Assembly: GCA_963726195.1 (NCBI GenBank) | Contig: CAVSBO010000008.1 | Span: 96,001-160,000, forward strand | DNA from: Candidatus Thorarchaeota archaeon | GTDB taxonomy: Archaea > Asgardarchaeota > Thorarchaeia > Thorarchaeales > Thorarchaeaceae | Direction of reading: 5' to 3' | DNA: 64,000 nucleotides | Shown: piece by piece, positions 10,136 through 21,002 of the stretch | Numbering within the stretch: position 1 is the first letter of the stretch | How the letters are laid out: the number at the start of each line of letters is the position of its first letter | Program-made: the position numbers and the translations under genes | Notes under the pieces: generated by a model | Seen by the model: the letters and a program-made list of their open reading frames with translations, nothing else | What the model was told of the DNA's origin: nothing | Databases searched by the model: none

Positions 10136-10586
10136 CTAGGAATCCCATGTGATTCCAAGCATTCTCTCGGCCGTTTCCCACAACCTTCGTTGCAGGTCCA
10201 AATCATAGGACAGCTCGGACGAGCGGCTCTCTTCCTTCTTTGAGAAATACTTGCCGCTGACACCCTCGATGTCTGGCGACGATGCAAGAAGAACAGAAGT
10301 CTCTGCCCCCTTCTCTGGAGGGATTTGCATTGGACGTACCATCTTGAACATGACACTGCTTCGGGTTCCTGCGTTGCCTCCCAGATTGGTTGCAACGAAA
10401 CCCGGATGAACGACGTTGGCAGTTACACCAGTGTTCTCCAGACGGCGAGCTAGTTCGTAAGTGAACATGAGAACCATTAGCTTGGCATTCTGATACGCTG
10501 TCATTCCTTTGTAGTGCTTCGTGCTCTGAAGATTGTCGAAGTCGATCACTCCATTCTTGTGAAGTCCTGAGGTTATGTTGATAACC
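10136..10586 (-). pseudogene. SDR oxidoreductase (retinol dehydrogenase-like), C-terminal half, interrupted by insertion
   Basis: VINITSGLH...AYQNAK (YxxxK)...VHPGFVATNL; joins the N-terminal half in frame as PSR-VIN. Confidence 0.9.
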
Positions 10587-10588
10587 GT

Positions 10589-12627
10589 TCATTGTAAGTT
10601 GGACAAAGTTGGACATATTTCCTTTGTCCTCCCAGGAACGGCACTGGGACTCTGGACATGAATTATGTTTCGTGCAGCATTGATGTCCGCATGAATGTGT
10701 GAGTCGCAGTTTGGACAGTAGAAGTACTCTCCACCTTTCTGTTCCACCTTTGACCTGCAACTATCGACACGTATGCCTTTCTGCCTGCACACATGGCAGG
10801 TCTGGCTGGTGTAGGCGGGGTTCACTGTCCACACACTGTACGGGCTATGACCCAGTGACTCGCGCATGTACCGGACAGTGTCGATAACCTCTCCCCACAG
10901 GTTGGTGGAGAGTCTCCACGACAGGGCTCCCTGACCAGCCGGGGTCTGGTAGTTCCTCAAGTCTTCGAAGTAAACGGTCTTCACACTGTGCTCTTCGCAG
11001 AACCAAACAGTGTGCGAAGCAACCAACCGGGAAACTTCACGGTCGAGACGACGCACCTTCTGCCACACAGCATCCTGATGTCTCTCTTTTTTTAGCAAGA
11101 ACACAGGATGCGACAGCCCCGGCCGTTTCTTGTCCCAGTTGTTCCTTCTCCTGTCCACTTCGGATCTGAGCAGCGAGGCCTGTTCTCTAAGCCTCTCCCT
11201 TTTCTCCAACAGATACTCCACTCTAAGCAGCTCGTCCAGGTAATCACCATCCTCTTGAACTGAAAGGGCAACGGGGACTCTCACACCCCTATCGACACCG
11301 GCTAGTGCAGTGTACTCCTTTTCTCCTAAGACCTGCAGCAGAGTCTTTCTGTCAGGGGAAAGAAAGGGGATTTGGAGTGTGACGCGATGACCTCTCATGA
11401 GCAGGCGAGGTGGGGCACTCCTCCTCAAGGACTTCAAACTCTTCATATCGGCCTCGAGCCTCGCCACCTCTTCGGGGTCGGATTCTCTCTTCTGTCTGAG
11501 GCATGAGAGCGCGTAGGCCAAGTGCTGGACTTGAATGGTGTTCATGAGCTGTTGGTGTTGGTCCTCAAGCTTCGCTGCCCTGAACCTCAGCCTGTGTTGC
11601 ACGAGCAACTCTTCCCTCCTGCTCGACTGCCTCGGCTCTGTTACGGCCGTCTCCCGCAGCACGAGGCAGCCAGTTCAGAAATCTGAAGGTCAGAGTCTGA
11701 GTACCATATGGAGAACCGTCGCTGGGTGTGCCATCGAGTCCCGGGAGGGAGCTTGATGTGGAGGAGAACCTCATTCTCCCTATCGTTGTCGAGTGTGAAC
11801 CAGTAACCCTGTCCCACACTGTTCTCTGTCGATGCCGAGTAGTCAAGGCTCCACTTTCTGAGCTGAGGGACTGTAAAGGGATACCCCTCCTTGTGCCAGC
11901 ATTGTATCCGCTCAGCTACGAGCGAGGTCACTTCCCCGAACTCGGGCGAGTTGGCCTGCAGGTGGTCACCGACCCGCTTCCTCTGCGCAGACCTCGACCC
12001 AAGGGGCTGAGCAAGTGAGGAGAGAATGTACTCGTCAAGAGCCCTCCTGATCTGTTTCAGAGCACCCAAGGCATAGTGATATCCTGTACCGTTGTCCTTT
12101 GCACGCTCACAGGAGTCTCTCACCTTTCGTATCAGGTCAGCTGGAATGTATCTGTTCCTGAGCAAACGGAGTTGGTCGGCAAGGGAAGCATCCAGAAGAG
12201 AAACTGCAGATTCCACAAGCCTTCTTCGAGTGTGGTCAGCATGAACCGTCCTGGCAGCCTGTTCCAGTACGTCCCTATGAAGCCTTTCGAACACAAGCTG
12301 TCTGAACTCTTCGTTATGCTGGTAACAGAGGTCACGCTCCTTCCTGAGGAGCGTGTAGCCATAACCCCTGTACTTCGTCAGCTCTTCGCCCAACCTCTTT
12401 GCTCTTGCAGGGTGAGAATAGACTCGCTCAAGTGCGAGGTTGACCGCCTTCACATACCTGTCCAAGTAAGTACCTATGGTAGCCAGCCCAAGATCCCCGA
12501 CCTTTGTGCCAAAGGTCCTGCATAATGTATGCAGTCTTTCTTGGGATGATATGGATGCGTTTGAGGGGAAGGTTCTCCTACTGAAGGCCGGGTCTGGCTG
12601 CTTTCCAAGACCTTTGTGCGAGGGCAT
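10589..12627 (-). CDS. tnpB: Large TnpB/Cas12-like RNA-guided endonuclease (~680 aa; 1-2 frameshifts near 11590-11745)
   Basis: RuvC-I LAGVDRG, RuvC-II VYFEDL, VNPAYTSQTCHVC, FYCPNC..HADINAARNI; N-terminal part in ORF 11641-12750; start chosen at the ATG downstream of a TATA-like tract. Confidence 0.85.
10596..10615 (+). repeat. Subterminal tandem repeat AAGTTGGACA x2 (TnpB-proximal end)
   Basis: Perfect 10-bp tandem, 9 bp inside the CC core. Confidence 0.85.
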
Positions 12628-12680
12628 GTAATCTTGGGAACACAGGGTGAAGGACTCGACAAGATATCTCACGTGACCAC

Positions 12681-12914
12681 AATTATATATGCCGCCCATT
12701 GTTGTATGCATGCTCTGCGTCCGGGGGTGGCGCTGGACGGGTCGTTTCACGGCAGTTCCTCAACATCTCTGTGTATTGCGGTCCTCTTAAGCGCCACCAA
12801 TTATATATATCATGGAAGTTTCCCAACTGAGAACTTATGCATACTATATTTGCCACTTTTGACTGTCATATCGCTTGTATAATTAGCCATATTGTCACAG
12901 CATCCTTATAAATA
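12681..12914. promoter_or_regulatory. Divergent AT-rich promoter region with three TATA-like boxes
   Basis: AATTATATAT 12681-12690, AATTATATATAT 12799-12810, TTATAAATA 12906-12914 (about 20 nt before ATG 12934). Confidence 0.55.
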
Positions 12915-12933
12915 GCTGAGGTCCACCAGTACC

Positions 12934-15900
12934 ATGCTCAAGGGCGAGACCGATGTCAGACCAAGTGAGGTTTTGAGAGATTCATTGTCAATAGGCCTGG
13001 CCGCCATAGCCAGACTGACAAGGTGTCGCTCCAATTCCACTGTCAGGAAGTACGTCGACTCGATAGCCCAGTGCTGGTCCGATGCATCTGCCAAGCTGGA
13101 AAACGTCCTTGCCACGACACAGTACGGAGCATCTGCGATCGTGTCATCAATCGCAGCCATAGAGCACAGTCTTCGGCACTCCATCTCAAGTTCCTCTGGC
13201 AGAGCACGAAACGCTACGGAAACCGCGAATTCAAACGGGTTTACGATTGGAGACAGGGCTCTGTTGGTCCGCTTAACGGGTTTCTGAACTACCTTGGAGC
13301 AAGGCTCAGAGACCTTGCCGTTACCCGCTATTCATTTCCAACACCCCAGCACTATCAGGTGAGAGAGTACCCTGACGGCTCCAAGAAGGTTCTCGCAGCG
13401 TCCGTTGCATCCAAGTTACCCATTGACGGCTCAGTAAAGAGATACTGGAAGGCAGGATACCCAGGGACATCGAGAGCCCCGCGGGTGCTGCTAGCACACC
13501 CAACTCTTCCGGAAATGGACTTCGTGGACATGCTCCGGGGGCATCTGGTCGAGCTCTCTCGTCAGCTGTTTATCTACAACGTGCCCCGTGATGATGCCCA
13601 TAGATACATCCGACTCTTGGTTGCTCGGTTAACGCCATTCCTCGACTGGGTCTACACAGGAGGAAAGGCAGGTCGCAAGAACTTCTGTCCTGATGGTGAC
13701 AGAGAACTCAGGCACCTTGTCCTCGAAATACGGTCCACTTACGGCAGAAGAGCTGGACAGGGTCGTAGGACATCTGAGATGGCTCAGCAAGAGGGAACTC
13801 CGAGTGTCAGTATCGCTACGCTCACAGAGAAAGCCATTGGACTACTCCAGAGCACCCAAGATCCTGAGATTCGGAAGGCATGCGAGCGCATACTTGACAG
13901 TATAAACCAAGAGGTTCTCACCGAGAATGACGTGATGCGGCTCAGGGAGCACATAGTCGCTCTAATTCAACAGGAGGGCAATGACTGGCACAGGGTGCTT
14001 CTATCAGACCTGCATCACTGTTCTCTCATCGATGCTGTTCTGAGCGGCGACTCGATGCTTGAGACTGTCTCCGATAGACAGTTCTTAGCCGAGGTTCTCA
14101 ATGAAAGGTTCTGAAGACCAAGGGCAGGCTGATATTGTCCTCTTTCTGAGGAGAAAAGCGGGACTACGAGTAGTCTGGACTCCCGTGATGGTTCTGGAGA
14201 TAAAGACGAGAAGCTCCTTCGATTTTGCGCTCTACGGCCTAAGACCACGAACCAAGATTATGAACGCGTTTGTGCCAGCCCTTTGCCCTTGGAAAGTGTT
14301 CTCTTTCAGAGAAAGAGTGGGAGAGCATCGTTTCGTCAGAACCGCCGCAGAGCAACCTGCGACAGTTGGAGCTCTATGAACGAGGACTGATAGAGGAGTA
14401 CCGACGACTGGTTCCTGAGGATCACACGCTGCCGTCTCTCTGTGGAAAGGTGTCGTAGTGGTCGACAGCTTACAGACATACAAAGAGACCTTCGAAGCCT
14501 TCTCTGCTCTCACTCAGAACCTGATGCAGCTTCGTCACTTGCCATCAGGAAAAGGAAGATGGTCTTCGCTGAGCATGAAAGACCTCTTTGACAGGAGTCC
14601 GAGAGTCGCATTGCTGATGTCACCTTCCGAGGGGCCATCCCACTTGCTCAGTCGGACCACATTTCCAGACTCCATCTTGATAGAGAACCCGTTCAAGGAC
14701 AGTACCGAACACCAGCGGAATCTGACGCTCTACATACCTGTCGCATCAGTCAACATCTGGAGGAAGAGCCGCTGCATGGCACTCCAAGAACTGGCATTTG
14801 CTCAACCATATCCAAGAACTGCGCGAAAGAGACCGGGATGTTGGAGGTGTGGTCTGGCTGGATTTAACCAGCTCTCTTCCTGAAGGGTTTCGCAGACGTG
14901 CTTTCAGGCTGGAGAACACCAGGAGGAAGAAAGGGCGGCTTCTGGAACACTTGCAGCGATTCTGGATGAAGTCGATTTTCATGACATGGGGAATATGGTG
15001 CGAGAATACCTTGCAGGCAGGGCTGATGCAGACATAGCACGGGAGCTGACTGGTATCAGGCAATCACGGCAGCCCGGCTCCCGATTCATCGTCGTCATTG
15101 ATGGATGGAGCGAACTCCGCCAAATGGTCCATGGCTCTGAAAGGCAGAGACTCAGAGCCCTTGAACAGCTTCTCGTCGAGAAGATTGTCGCAAAAGAGAA
15201 CGAGGTCATATGGGTTGACAGTGGAATCCAGCACACGAAGATGAACTTGATTTACCAGAGACCATGCGTACGTCCGCTGGAGGCAGATTCGCCTCGCAGA
15301 CTTCGTCTCGGGGAGATATTATGGAACATGCCTTTGCCGCCAAAGGGATTCGGATGGCAGGCACCATGGTTTGACGATAAGAGGGTGATTATTCAGGACA
15401 CTGCCACTTCAGCACCTCTCTGGTCAACGGTAATTGATGTGCCGATGTTAAGACATTGGCCGAGGAAGTTCAGAGGTCTATCGAACAGGGAAGTGACAAT
15501 CCAGGAATATGAAGTCAGGTCCAGTCTTCTGACAGACGAAGACATGTACGGTCGGTCTGTCCGGCTTTCTTCTATCCAAGCCGATATGCAGCAGCTTTCT
15601 GAAGAGACAATCATGGACATTCAAGAGAAAGCGATGAGTCTCGCTCCGAGCCTACTCAGATCAAGAAACAGGGAAGAACAACAAGTCATACCAGACACCG
15701 AACAGTCGTCGATGACCCTGCTTTCCGTTATGGTTACATGTGCCTCGCCTCCGACCCTTAGTGATAGACTGCATCTCCAGCCCTGTCATCCTCCTCCTGA
15801 GCCCGGGCGGTCCAAGCTGAGATATGTGGACCCGGAGCGGATAACACGTGAGTGGCAGAACAGAATCCTAAAGAAGGACGAGGAAGATAGCAAGAGAAGT

Positions 15901-18058
15901 CGCATGACCCGGCGGCCTCCGCTCTATGCTGTGACCATGTCTCAGAGAATCGACTCCGACACAACTCGAAGACGTGAAGTCAGACGACTAATGCATGCGG
16001 CCGACTATCTCAAGCACCGACTCGACCCCGGCGAAGATCTGGAAGTTCTGTTCGAAGACATAGTTGCTTGCTGTCGTTCCACGCTTGAAGGCCCAAGAAA
16101 TGGCCAGTTGTATCTGAAGACTTTGTTGGAAGTCCATGACATGATTCTTGAGAACACGAGACGGCGAGGTGCATGGCTTTTGATAGAGCAAGAGAGGAAC
16201 ACCCTCGGAGATGTTCTGAGCCTTGAGAACCGTGCCGCGCTTCAACAAGCGATGTCTCGCAACCCCGAGCTGCTGACGCTATATGGCAACAATCTGTTCC
16301 TTGCTGTAATCGTTGCCATCACGAGAATCATGGATGACCCCGTTGATCTGGGGATACTCCCACTATGGAGAGCAGTTGCAGAATGGGAGCTCTATCAGAT
16401 GGGTTTCAAGCCCGCAGAGAGGCCGCCATACATGGCTCGTTCCAGATACGACTTCGCGTCAATCTATGGCAACCTGCTGTTCCGGACAAGGAACCTCGTA
16501 TCTCAGAAACAGAAATCACAGGCCGCACCGAAGAGGCCTCAGGCATATCAGTATAGAGAGGGGATACTTGTCGGTAAAGAGGGGTCGTCCTGCTGGCTCC
16601 TGTTCAAAGCGGATGATGGAAGGGTTGTATGCGGGTTGCTAGAGGACCCCGGTGGCAGGCTGGGCATAGGTTGGTATCGATGTTCTACCAATCCTGCGCA
16701 GATGTCTGAGGCTGCTGAGGACACTCTTCACGGGAGCAACGACGACATTCAGATGCACTTGGCCGTGACCACCGTGGGCAAATCCGAGATACTCTGGCAG
16801 CGGCACGAAGAAGGCACCGGTGGCTGGATGCTTCTGGGACGACTTGAGTATCAGATTAACGAACGAGAGGGAGTCGCAACCATACCGTGGCTGAAGACAT
16901 CAGAACCGGATTTGAAGACCTCGCTAGGCCTATCTGAGAGCATGCCCGTAGGTGTACCATCCTCAGAGTCAACGTCGCGGCTACTAACCCCTCTCAAGAA
17001 AATAGCAGAGTGGAATGTCGAAGTCAAGAGTGTGAAGTGTGAGGTCTCATTGGACACTAGGAAAAGAGCGTATGTCATTACATTTCGCAATCCTGAACTG
17101 CCCAGCCAGTGAAGTCTACGAGAGTTTTGAGAGCGCAGACACCCTTGAAATCGTGTCCGTACTGAGGTCGCCCGTGACAGGAAAACAACAGGTGATCACA
17201 AAGGAAGGAGCAGTCCTCACTTGGGACCATCTGAAGGATATCGACTATGGGGTCGCAACAGTTCCAACTCGAGATGGTGAGGCAGATATCAGCCTGTCAT
17301 TCCTCAGACCTCTTGTCCATCGCAGTCGGTTCTTTGCCGGAGATTATGTGGTTCCATACAATGCGACTCAGCTGTTCACTCTTAGAGAGGGACCGCCTGT
17401 GACGATCAGAGTCCTCCCGTGGGACAGAAAACAAAGTGACTATGACCTCAGACGACTCAGGGTCACCATTGATGGACTCAACGAGGACTCTGGCTTGAAG
17501 GGTCTCGAGGATAGAATGATGAAAGTCCGGGATGTCGCTCTGCTGACGGACTGCGAGCACTCATCGATGTCAGGTCAGGTCTGGTACATCCCGTACGAGT
17601 TAACGTCAGAAAGGTGGTCGGGCTTAAGTCTCCTGAGGACATATCAGATTCCCGACTTGTGGAGCTGACTTTCGGAGTTGGAGGAGGAGAGCCATGATTC
17701 AGATGAGGAGTCAGAGTCTTACTCAGACGAGAAGCAAGAGAAGAGTTCCAAAGCGGAACAACGTCAAATGGTCTTCGTGTCAGCCAATGTAATCGTTGGC
17801 AGGCGAATGACTGTCATAGAGTATCATGTAGACGTGACGTTGGCTCCGGTCGATGATACAAAAAGCGTGGAGGTGGGAGAACTCATGACAGTGAGGTGGG
17901 AGAAAGGCCGTACTGCAGCCAACTATGAGGGCTTAGCAGAAGAGATTAGTGCGAATCTCAGGAAACAGGGCGTGGTGGAAGGCGACCATGGGGAAGCCAC
18001 CCGAGACATTATGGCTCTGCTGGAGAAGGCGGGCCTGCCGGTTCTGGAGGATGAGTAA
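12934..18058 (+). CDS. Giant (~1,700 aa) hypothetical protein with PD-(D/E)XK/RecB-like nuclease motifs and a degenerate P-loop-like region, split into about 8 ORFs by frameshifts
   Basis: Abutting or overlapping + strand ORFs from 12934 to 18058; motifs GQADIVL..VLEIKT..QLELYE; Walker-B-like FIVVIDG. Confidence 0.6.
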
Positions 18059-18187
18059 GAGGAAATGGTTGCAGTGCCAGATACTGTGAACCCAAGGCTG
18101 GCAGCCGCGGTTCCTCGATCACGACTTAGCCTATCCGACATTGTTACAACACGCTGCAGCATTCATCCGCCTTGGATGTGTCCTCCA

Positions 18188-18207
18188 TGTCCAAGATTGT
18201 CCAACTT
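18188..18207 (-). repeat. Subterminal tandem repeat AAGTTGGACA-ATCTTGGACA (distal end, inverted relative to the other end)
   Basis: TGTCCAAGAT TGTCCAACTT on the + strand. Confidence 0.85.
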
Positions 18208-18221
18208 CTAGGCAGTGGATA

Positions 18222-18629
18222 CCCTTGAAGGGGCGCTCGATTTCAAGATCGGCAGCAGTTCGTGTGTCAGGAGAAAAGGAGCAAGGTAGTTCACTGCCAA
18301 TGATCGTCGAAACCATCGACAGTTACCTCTCGCTTGTTGAAGACAGCGCCAGCATTGTTGTCTAGAACGTCAAGTCGCTCATGACTATTCTGAAACTCTT
18401 CTGCAAAACGACGTATCTCTTGCACAGAGGAGAGGTCACAAATCATGAGTTCGAGCGCATTGTTGCCGGTTGTCTTAGCGATTTCCGCACGCGCTTGTTC
18501 GCCTCGCTCTCTGTTTCTAACAACCATAACTACATTGGCATCCATCCGAGCCAATGCTCTGGCCGTCTCTTTTCCTATCCCTGAGTTGCTGCCGGTGACT
18601 ACGCAGACCTTGTTTGTCATGAGTCCCAT
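18222..18629 (-). pseudogene. SDR oxidoreductase N-terminal half (plus a 1-bp frameshift near 18310)
   Basis: VTGSNSGIG, CDLSS, LDVLDNNAG, AVNYLAPFLLT, ending at SSAPSR at the insertion junction. Confidence 0.9.

Positions 18630-18794: not shown

Positions 18795-21002
<2,208 letters not shown>

Follow-up and report, generated by a model that had tools for sequence, protein, structure and literature searches.

The window analysed here is a 64,000-nt stretch of the genome of a Candidatus Thorarchaeota archaeon (assembly GCA_963726195.1, contig CAVSBO010000008.1, positions 96,001 to 160,000; all coordinates below are those of the window). Within it, a mobile element interrupts a host gene for a short-chain dehydrogenase/reductase (SDR) and carries two divergent genes, a long tnpB and a giant gene whose product has the marks of an Asgard Cas1 (aCas1) protein. 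The main features are as follows.

10587 to 18221, minus strand: the whole element, 7,635 bp, with its left end at 18221 and its right end at 10587 on the tnpB strand, placed by the empty-allele joint and by sister copies
18222 to 18629, minus strand: N-terminal half of the interrupted SDR gene, with one 1-nt deletion near 18310 that is probably an assembly error
10136 to 10584, minus strand: C-terminal half of the SDR gene, from Pfam adh_short and homologues
10589 to 12750, minus strand: tnpB of a long (~710 to 720 aa) Thorarchaeota lineage (PF07282, E 1e-14), with RuvC D/E/D residues and zinc finger intact
12934 to 18058, plus strand: giant aCas1-type gene, ~1,700 aa when read through, 87% identical to an intact copy on contig C16

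An earlier reading of the region, made before any database search (the sequence-only reading), had proposed that the SDR gene was split by an insertion at a GG dinucleotide without target site duplication (TSD). The window sequence has the minus-strand junctions that it gave, TCAAG-GG-tatcc and gaac-GG-TTATC; both gene halves match Pfam adh_short, and in homologous SDRs from relatives a PSRVIN-like sequence spans the insertion site. The boundaries were borne out by contigs of three public sequencing runs from two studies (X1, X2, and X4), which carry the empty allele: they connect position 10583 directly to 18221, omit exactly 7,637 nt (ambiguity, 3 nt), read ...SRVIN... in frame, and lack a target duplication. 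This joint sets the element at 7,635 bp plus one shared GG, with no TSD, as in the sequence-only reading. It also ruled out a symmetric boundary (CC-N9-repeat at both ends, 10585 to 18218). Over ~900 to 1,150 nt, the flanks of the empty allele in X1 and X2 show a single substitution and a single gap relative to the window, and this near identity indicates that the insertion into the SDR gene is recent. What looked like a guide variant at the same site in run X4 proved to be the consensus of two different contigs, and no joint of right end to left end, as in a circle, was present among the public-run contigs compared with the locus.

IS607 elements are marked by a GG core, the lack of a TSD, and short subterminal repeats with an imperfect inverted repeat (Chen et al. 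2018, PMC6188088). The window element shares the GG insertion without target duplication, seen in the empty allele of the three runs and at 38 further junctions, and its ends likewise carry short subterminal repeats that include an imperfect inverted repeat.

18187 to 18207, minus strand: left-end tandem 10-bp repeats of TTGGACA type, predicted TnpA binding sites; the same motif precedes tnpA in ~27 relatives
10596 to 10616, plus strand: right-end tandem 10-bp repeats, inverted relative to the left end, from sequence and repeat analysis
18222 to 18225, minus strand: target-side motif AGGG with the GG crossover core at 18223-18222, the predicted target-adjacent motif (TAM) of TnpB; from the sequence and a 38-junction consensus, with the TAM role taken from CboIStron
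10585 to 10586, minus strand: GG core at the right junction, where the right end reads ACGG and differs from AGGG at position -3
10585 to 10650, minus strand: predicted 3' part of the omega-RNA scaffold, with hairpins at 10631-10648 and 10611-10629, overlapping the tnpB stop codon
10565 to 10584, minus strand: predicted guide, which is host SDR flank and matches the empty allele; proposed from IS607 biology

The 21-nt inverted arms at 10596-10616 and 18187-18207 rank first among the inverted repeats of the region, as the sequence-only description of tandem inverted end repeats would have it, although the left-end repeats of this copy are imperfect. Viral matches of the end motif were judged to be due to chance. 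Neither open reading frames (ORFs) nor profile searches revealed a serine recombinase within the element, again as first described; the tnpA for a helix-turn-helix (HTH) serine recombinase that IS607 elements carry is present instead in a sibling copy and in many relatives. The same ends occur at least 21 times in the source genome, in gene-less miniature elements (minis), in truncated derivatives, and in an 8.1-kb copy on contig C3. In the C3 copy, tnpA follows the left end, tnpB runs in the same direction into the right end, and the giant gene lies between them in the opposite direction. The C3 TnpA passes the IS607 transposase model NF033518 (174 bits; cut-off, 110), its gene is the sole resolvase-family gene found in the assembly, and when the C3 copy is deleted together with one GG, a frame of 301 codons is regained. 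We conclude that the window element is a TnpA-less member of a three-gene Thorarchaeota IS607 family (tnpA, giant gene, tnpB) and that this copy is non-autonomous, because it lacks tnpA while a sibling that shares its ends has the gene. Of the two possibilities named in the sequence-only reading, a non-autonomous IS607 derivative is thus well supported and a new two-gene system is not: autonomous members carry three genes, and the giant belongs to a kind of Cas1-domain protein already published.

Across the family, giant-gene sequence adjoins 18 of 24 readable IS607 tnpA loci, and the remaining tnpA loci run into tnpB, most of them via visibly truncated genes that look like deletion derivatives. 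At two loci (L158 and L169), the giant gene starts directly after tnpA in the same direction, whereas the usual arrangement is convergent. A sister copy on contig C16 is 87.6% identical to the window element over 7.6 kb. About 16 minis (183 to 188 bp; L132 to L147) keep both ends, a TATA-like box, and the omega-RNA hairpins, and may possibly serve as stand-alone guide cassettes. One derivative (L026, contig C8:55320-59492) consists of a left end, a 3' stub of the giant gene, two unrelated genes, a 3' stub of tnpB, and a right end; the element ends can therefore bracket other cargo.

The RuvC triad of TnpB (D475, E584, and D677 in the numbering of the sister protein) and its zinc finger are conserved without exception among 32 long TnpBs. 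At the level of sequence, the locus thus has the tnpB with RuvC D/E/D residues and the predicted omega RNA overlapping the right end that are expected of an IS607 element. In an alignment of 35 omega-RNA sequences, 93.9% of hairpin cells were paired and six of 10 pairs showed two-sided changes (0 of 500 shuffles); the aligned sequences are kin, so that this covariation is to be read as support and not as a probability. The region folds with a z score of -2.6, and an Rfam search of the predicted omega RNA returned no match. Junctions in other genomes gave a target consensus of AGGG|T (38 further junctions; A in 28, G in 37, the GG itself being partly fixed by the search design), and the base after the right end was G at 59 of 63 junctions. 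In CboIStron, the right end reads TCGG and the target TGGG, a self/non-self difference at position -3 (bioRxiv 10.1101/2023.11.20.567912). The proposal that TnpB would be aimed at the empty allele through a TAM ending in AGGG is well supported by the junction consensus. No further TAM-plus-guide target was found elsewhere in the assembly.

The giant protein was matched by none of the sequence resources searched (Pfam, NCBIfam, PADLOC, PDB sequences, and ESM Atlas features), and folding alone identified it. A structure model of residues 1 to 900 (predicted local distance difference test [pLDDT], 87.6; predicted template modeling score [pTM], 0.89) resolved three domains, and a separate C-terminal model suggested a fourth.

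12906 to 12913, plus strand: TATA-like box ~21 nt before the ATG of the giant gene, in the divergent promoter region 12751-12933, recognized from sequence only
12991 to 13705 (approximate), plus strand: Cas1 catalytic (alpha-helical) domain without the N-terminal beta domain; E58, H170, D177, D180, R183
13760 to 14630 (approximate), plus strand: Cas4/RecB-like PD-(D/E)XK nuclease domain; E368, D381, E403, K405, QLxxY
14705 to 15620 (approximate), plus strand: RecA/RadA/KaiC-fold domain without the Walker A lysine (no GK[ST]), a pseudo-ATPase
15910 to 16470 (approximate), plus strand: probable second, degenerate Cas1-like helical domain, tentative

Residues 1 to 238 of the model align with Archaeoglobus fulgidus Cas1 4n06 (VIA Z, 12.9; root mean square deviation [rmsd], 3.8; 180 residues aligned) and with casposase 6opm (Z, 10.8), and, besides 4n06, eight Cas1 or casposase chains match at Z 9.7 to 12.5. 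Residues 258 to 546 match Cas4 8d3l (VIA Z, 8.3; rmsd, 3.8; 134 aligned), and residues 573 to 876 match the RecA/RadA/KaiC fold (VIA Z, 10 to 11; Foldseek E to RAD51 paralogues, 5e-5). For residues ~975 to 1160, eight of the nine top VIA matches were Cas1 or casposase at Z values of only 5.3 to 6.5, and no profile similarity to the first Cas1 domain was seen; the matches point weakly but consistently to what is probably a second, degenerate Cas1-like domain. No clear fold match was obtained for residues ~1190 to 1689. E58, H170, D177, D180, and R183 of the Cas1 site, together with E368, D381, E/D403, K405, Q458, and Y462 of the nuclease site, are present in 94 to 96 of 96 homologues. Judged by its modeled fold, the giant is very probably an aCas1 fusion. 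In the protein first labeled "nuclease/ATPase-like", the ATPase-like part is without the Walker A lysine; the Cas1 domain had been missed, as had the frameshifts described below. The protein aCas1 was reportedly named by Makarova et al. in CRISPR J in 2020.

To describe the linkage of the giant to tnpB, we used 63 loci chosen by the giant alone, 59 of which were readable; in all 59, a tnpB stands head-to-head with it. The partners are of two kinds, long TnpBs (~720 aa, with IS607 ends and often tnpA) and short TnpBs (~570 aa, with a GTTCACTC motif), and tnpA is absent from all 35 short-TnpB loci. Partner type switches at least seven times over supported branches of the giant's tree. Together, the complete linkage and the partner switches argue that the giant follows TnpB as a class, and neither TnpA nor a single TnpB lineage; to call it cargo, as had been done, undersells a protein tied to TnpB across its whole family. 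Conversely, the giant lies upstream of about two thirds of long TnpBs. With 194 representatives, the family is small; its named homologues are all from Thorarchaeota, and it occurs in 28 of 43 genomes of one Asgard family versus one of 157 genomes of the phylum's other families. Many members adjoin tRNA genes.

Several loci of the family have neighborhoods of their own. The source genome holds a third giant gene with a short-lineage TnpB partner, beside RNA polymerase genes (L025, contig C16:216400-223400). Six short-TnpB elements at unrelated sites (L041, L052, L054, L069, L074, and L082) carry common end motifs of a second family (TGTAAG repeats) and have no tnpA nearby; no TSD was found for short-TnpB elements, whose boundaries, however, are not fixed. 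Five others (L057, L059, L077, L078, and L081) lie mostly just downstream of a 16S rRNA gene, and two to four short units behind their tnpB, with a 7- to 9-nt repeat between them, match the 16S 3' region. At L058, L063, L080, and L083, the segment behind the motif corresponds to antisense sequence of a conserved gene for hydrogenase delta (mvhD-like); in two of the four loci, that gene is ~150 nt away. Five long-TnpB elements (L031, L032, L060, L061, and L079) sit beside tRNA-Lys, and the segment after their right end resembles the 5' end of tRNA-Lys; that of L031 agrees at 14 to 17 of 18 positions with the alleles of other genomes versus 11 of 18 with its own. Overall, guide-to-neighbor matches exceeded shuffles at one of 18 long and five of 34 short loci. 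Homing beside tRNA and rRNA genes of the kind known from CRISPR-associated transposons (CAST) was not supported, since only six of 52 loci beat shuffles, and several of the cases are explained if the element had entered GGG at the 5' end of an old tRNA.

Taken together, these results are best explained by a transposase-less copy of a three-gene IS607 transposon in which TnpB provides homing and aCas1 acts as a helper, a reading to which we assign a probability of roughly 0.7. First, a serine transposase provided in trans, with the C3 TnpA as the likeliest candidate, would have recombined the element into AGGG|T of the SDR gene via the shared GG. The insertion product can be read directly from the junctions, and we have little doubt that TnpA was the enzyme. 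Second, TnpB with an omega RNA running from the right end into the SDR flank would cut the empty allele at its AGGG TAM plus flank, so that excision would be undone and the element would home into empty chromosomes; the element itself would be spared because its right end reads ACGG. By analogy with IS607 biochemistry and CboIStron, this homing against the empty allele is likely. Third, aCas1 would work with TnpB rather than with TnpA, processing and joining DNA at TnpB-cut sites: the Cas4/RecB-like nuclease would trim ends, the Cas1 domain would carry out strand transfer, and the RecA-fold part would serve as a scaffold. Such an activity could help to copy the element into cut targets and allow TnpA-less lineages to move. 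This role as a TnpB-coupled end-processing and joining helper is the tentative part of the explanation, and we place it slightly below even odds.

Several points weigh against this explanation. The role given to aCas1 is drawn from domain content and linkage. About one third of long TnpBs occur without aCas1, and TnpB is therefore independent of it. In the left end of the window copy, the core and the first repeat lie 4 nt closer together than in its siblings. The C16 sister copy (L022:2100-9700) has no recognizable left end and a non-GG right junction (GA); it may therefore be immobilized. Selection still acts on both of its genes, and a metagenome scan for its flank gave no match. Finally, the element in the window assembly has one indel per 0.7 kb, ~5 times the rate in host genes (one per 3.6 kb).

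The alternative that survives best holds that aCas1 unites a whole adaptation module (Cas1, Cas4, and pseudo-Cas1) in one protein and writes new guides behind the omega-RNA scaffold, a proto-CRISPR step, and that it has not yet acted in the window copy. Cas1 with Cas4 is the known pairing of spacer acquisition, the second Cas1-like domain could mimic a Cas1 dimer, and aCas1 is strictly linked to TnpB. Some short-TnpB loci, moreover, have two to four short repeated units matching 16S rRNA or tRNA genes, and a hypervariable region has been noted at aCas1-TnpB loci (PMC10691335). The guide at the window locus, however, is plain flank, neither an array nor cas2 is seen in the long lineage, the matches of guide to neighbor beat shuffles in just the few loci given above, and the repeated units could be leftover junctions. 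We consider guide writing together with an aCas1 still idle at this locus unlikely.

Less likely again is that the window copy is a decaying pseudo-element, with both genes truly frameshifted and only the ends working. The giant gene and enlarged TnpB of the sequence-only reading are indeed not open frames in the window assembly: tnpB is spread over three frames by +1 indels near 11591 and 11740, and the giant gene has nine single-base indels, making 11 coding indels in the element, above the genome-wide rate, to which the shortened left end can be added. On C16, however, both genes are intact (giant, 1,689 aa; TnpB, 708 aa). Comparison with that copy over 2,397 codons revealed no nonsense codon in the window element; those catalytic codons of the giant that were tested are retained, and the ratio of nonsynonymous to synonymous substitution rates (dN/dS) is uniformly low (giant, 0.26, with 0.23 to 0.32 across all domains; TnpB, 0.18). 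The insertion is also recent, its host flanks being almost identical to the empty allele. Host genes are frameshifted too (18 of 71 tested in the assembly, including an RNA polymerase subunit), and at least five of the element's indels are missing from related contigs. Five of the 11 indels fall at AGCT, which may be a methylated motif misread in long reads. A stretch of ~1.5 kb of T alone and then 47 C (18800 to 20377), 580 nt from the element, is almost certainly an assembly artifact and a sign of poor local sequence quality. For these reasons, we regard the frameshifts as probable assembly or sequencing errors.

It is improbable that aCas1 is a casposase-like transposase that itself made the window insertion, as its proposed role at aCas1-TnpB loci would have it (PMC10691335). 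Its Cas1 triad is intact, its Cas1 domain matches a casposase, the window copy has no tnpA, and neither do the 35 short-TnpB loci, several of which share end motifs of their own at unrelated sites. Casposase insertion, however, leaves a 15-bp TSD (Beguin et al. 2016, PMC5137440), and the idea fails for the window insertion because the product there is an IS607 crossover at GG without such a TSD; gene-less minis and tnpA-bearing copies also carry identical ends. For the short-TnpB lineage, with its own end motifs and no tnpA, aCas1 may still act as the transposase. Equally improbable is an unrelated defense or toxic nuclease cargo that helps or addicts the host, since the active-looking PD-(D/E)XK site, giant multidomain build, and purifying selection that suggest it are set against constant association with TnpB (59 loci), an integrase-type Cas1 site, and the lack of a PADLOC family match.

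A bolder reading seems to us doubtful. It would make aCas1 a machine of one chain (Cas1, Cas4, and pseudo-Cas1) that acts together with TnpB and either inserts the element at sites specified by RNA or adds new guides behind the omega RNA. Were it true, the family, riding here on IS607 ends, would represent a natural RNA-guided, Cas1-based integration system or, alternatively, a present-day link from TnpB transposons to CRISPR adaptation; how Cas1 became coupled to RNA-guided nucleases bears on how type V CRISPR systems arose. One genome holds all the parts: intact aCas1 and TnpB (C16), TnpA (C3), minis, ends, target motif, and guide.

Compared with type V CRISPR-Cas systems, the element has no CRISPR array by repeat analysis of the region, no cas2, and no Cas12 effector above the family cut-off, Cas12 models scoring far below it. 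It shares with the CRISPR adaptation module Cas4-Cas1(-Cas2) (7mi4, 8d3l) the presence of Cas1 and Cas4-like domains, here in one chain; unlike that module, Cas1 precedes the Cas4-like domain, the element has no Cas2, leader, or array, and the giant has additional RecA-fold and C-terminal domains. As in casposons, a Cas1-fold integrase domain occurs without a CRISPR array, and adjoining tRNA genes are frequent in the giant's family. In contrast to casposons, the window insertion has no TSD, the two genes fill the element and leave no PolB gene, and the Cas1 domain lacks the beta domain and is fused to nuclease and RecA-fold parts. The closest likeness in ends and chemistry is to IS607 elements (IS607, IS1535, ISC1926, CboIStron): a GG core, no TSD, subterminal repeats, an HTH-serine-recombinase TnpA (here in trans), tnpB overlapping the right end, a G-rich target motif, and discrimination of target from right end at position -3. 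The window family differs in its 5-kb third gene between tnpA and tnpB, in opposite direction, in a TnpB of ~710 aa, in an AGGG rather than a TGGG target, and in having no intron, and the window copy in its missing tnpA. The literature searched contained no description of an IS607 element with a 5-kb third gene and no paper on Thorarchaeota together with IS607.

The giant itself is most like the Cas1 homologues of Asgard aCas1-TnpB loci, where Altae-Tran et al. (2023, PMC10691335) described two groups of aCas1-associated TnpBs (Cas1H-Asgard-1/-2), a GTTCACTCA motif, and a hypervariable region, and suggested aCas1 as the transposase. Both sets have an Asgard host, a diverged Cas1 homologue with catalytic E/H/D residues beside TnpB, and two TnpB groups, and the GTTCACTCA motif sits behind the short-TnpB partners of homologous giants, although it is absent downstream of the window's long tnpB lineage. 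Because host, Cas1 domain, and motif agree, we assign the giant with high probability to the same protein family. The two accounts part over the transposase, which was published as aCas1; the ends, junction, and helper of the window element are those of IS607. To the published suggestion, this locus adds a mapped recent insertion and its empty allele, with IS607 chemistry; it follows that the intact, selected Cas1 fusion does something else in this lineage, always beside TnpB. A three-gene IS607 element with aCas1 thus makes the published aCas1-TnpB family directly testable.

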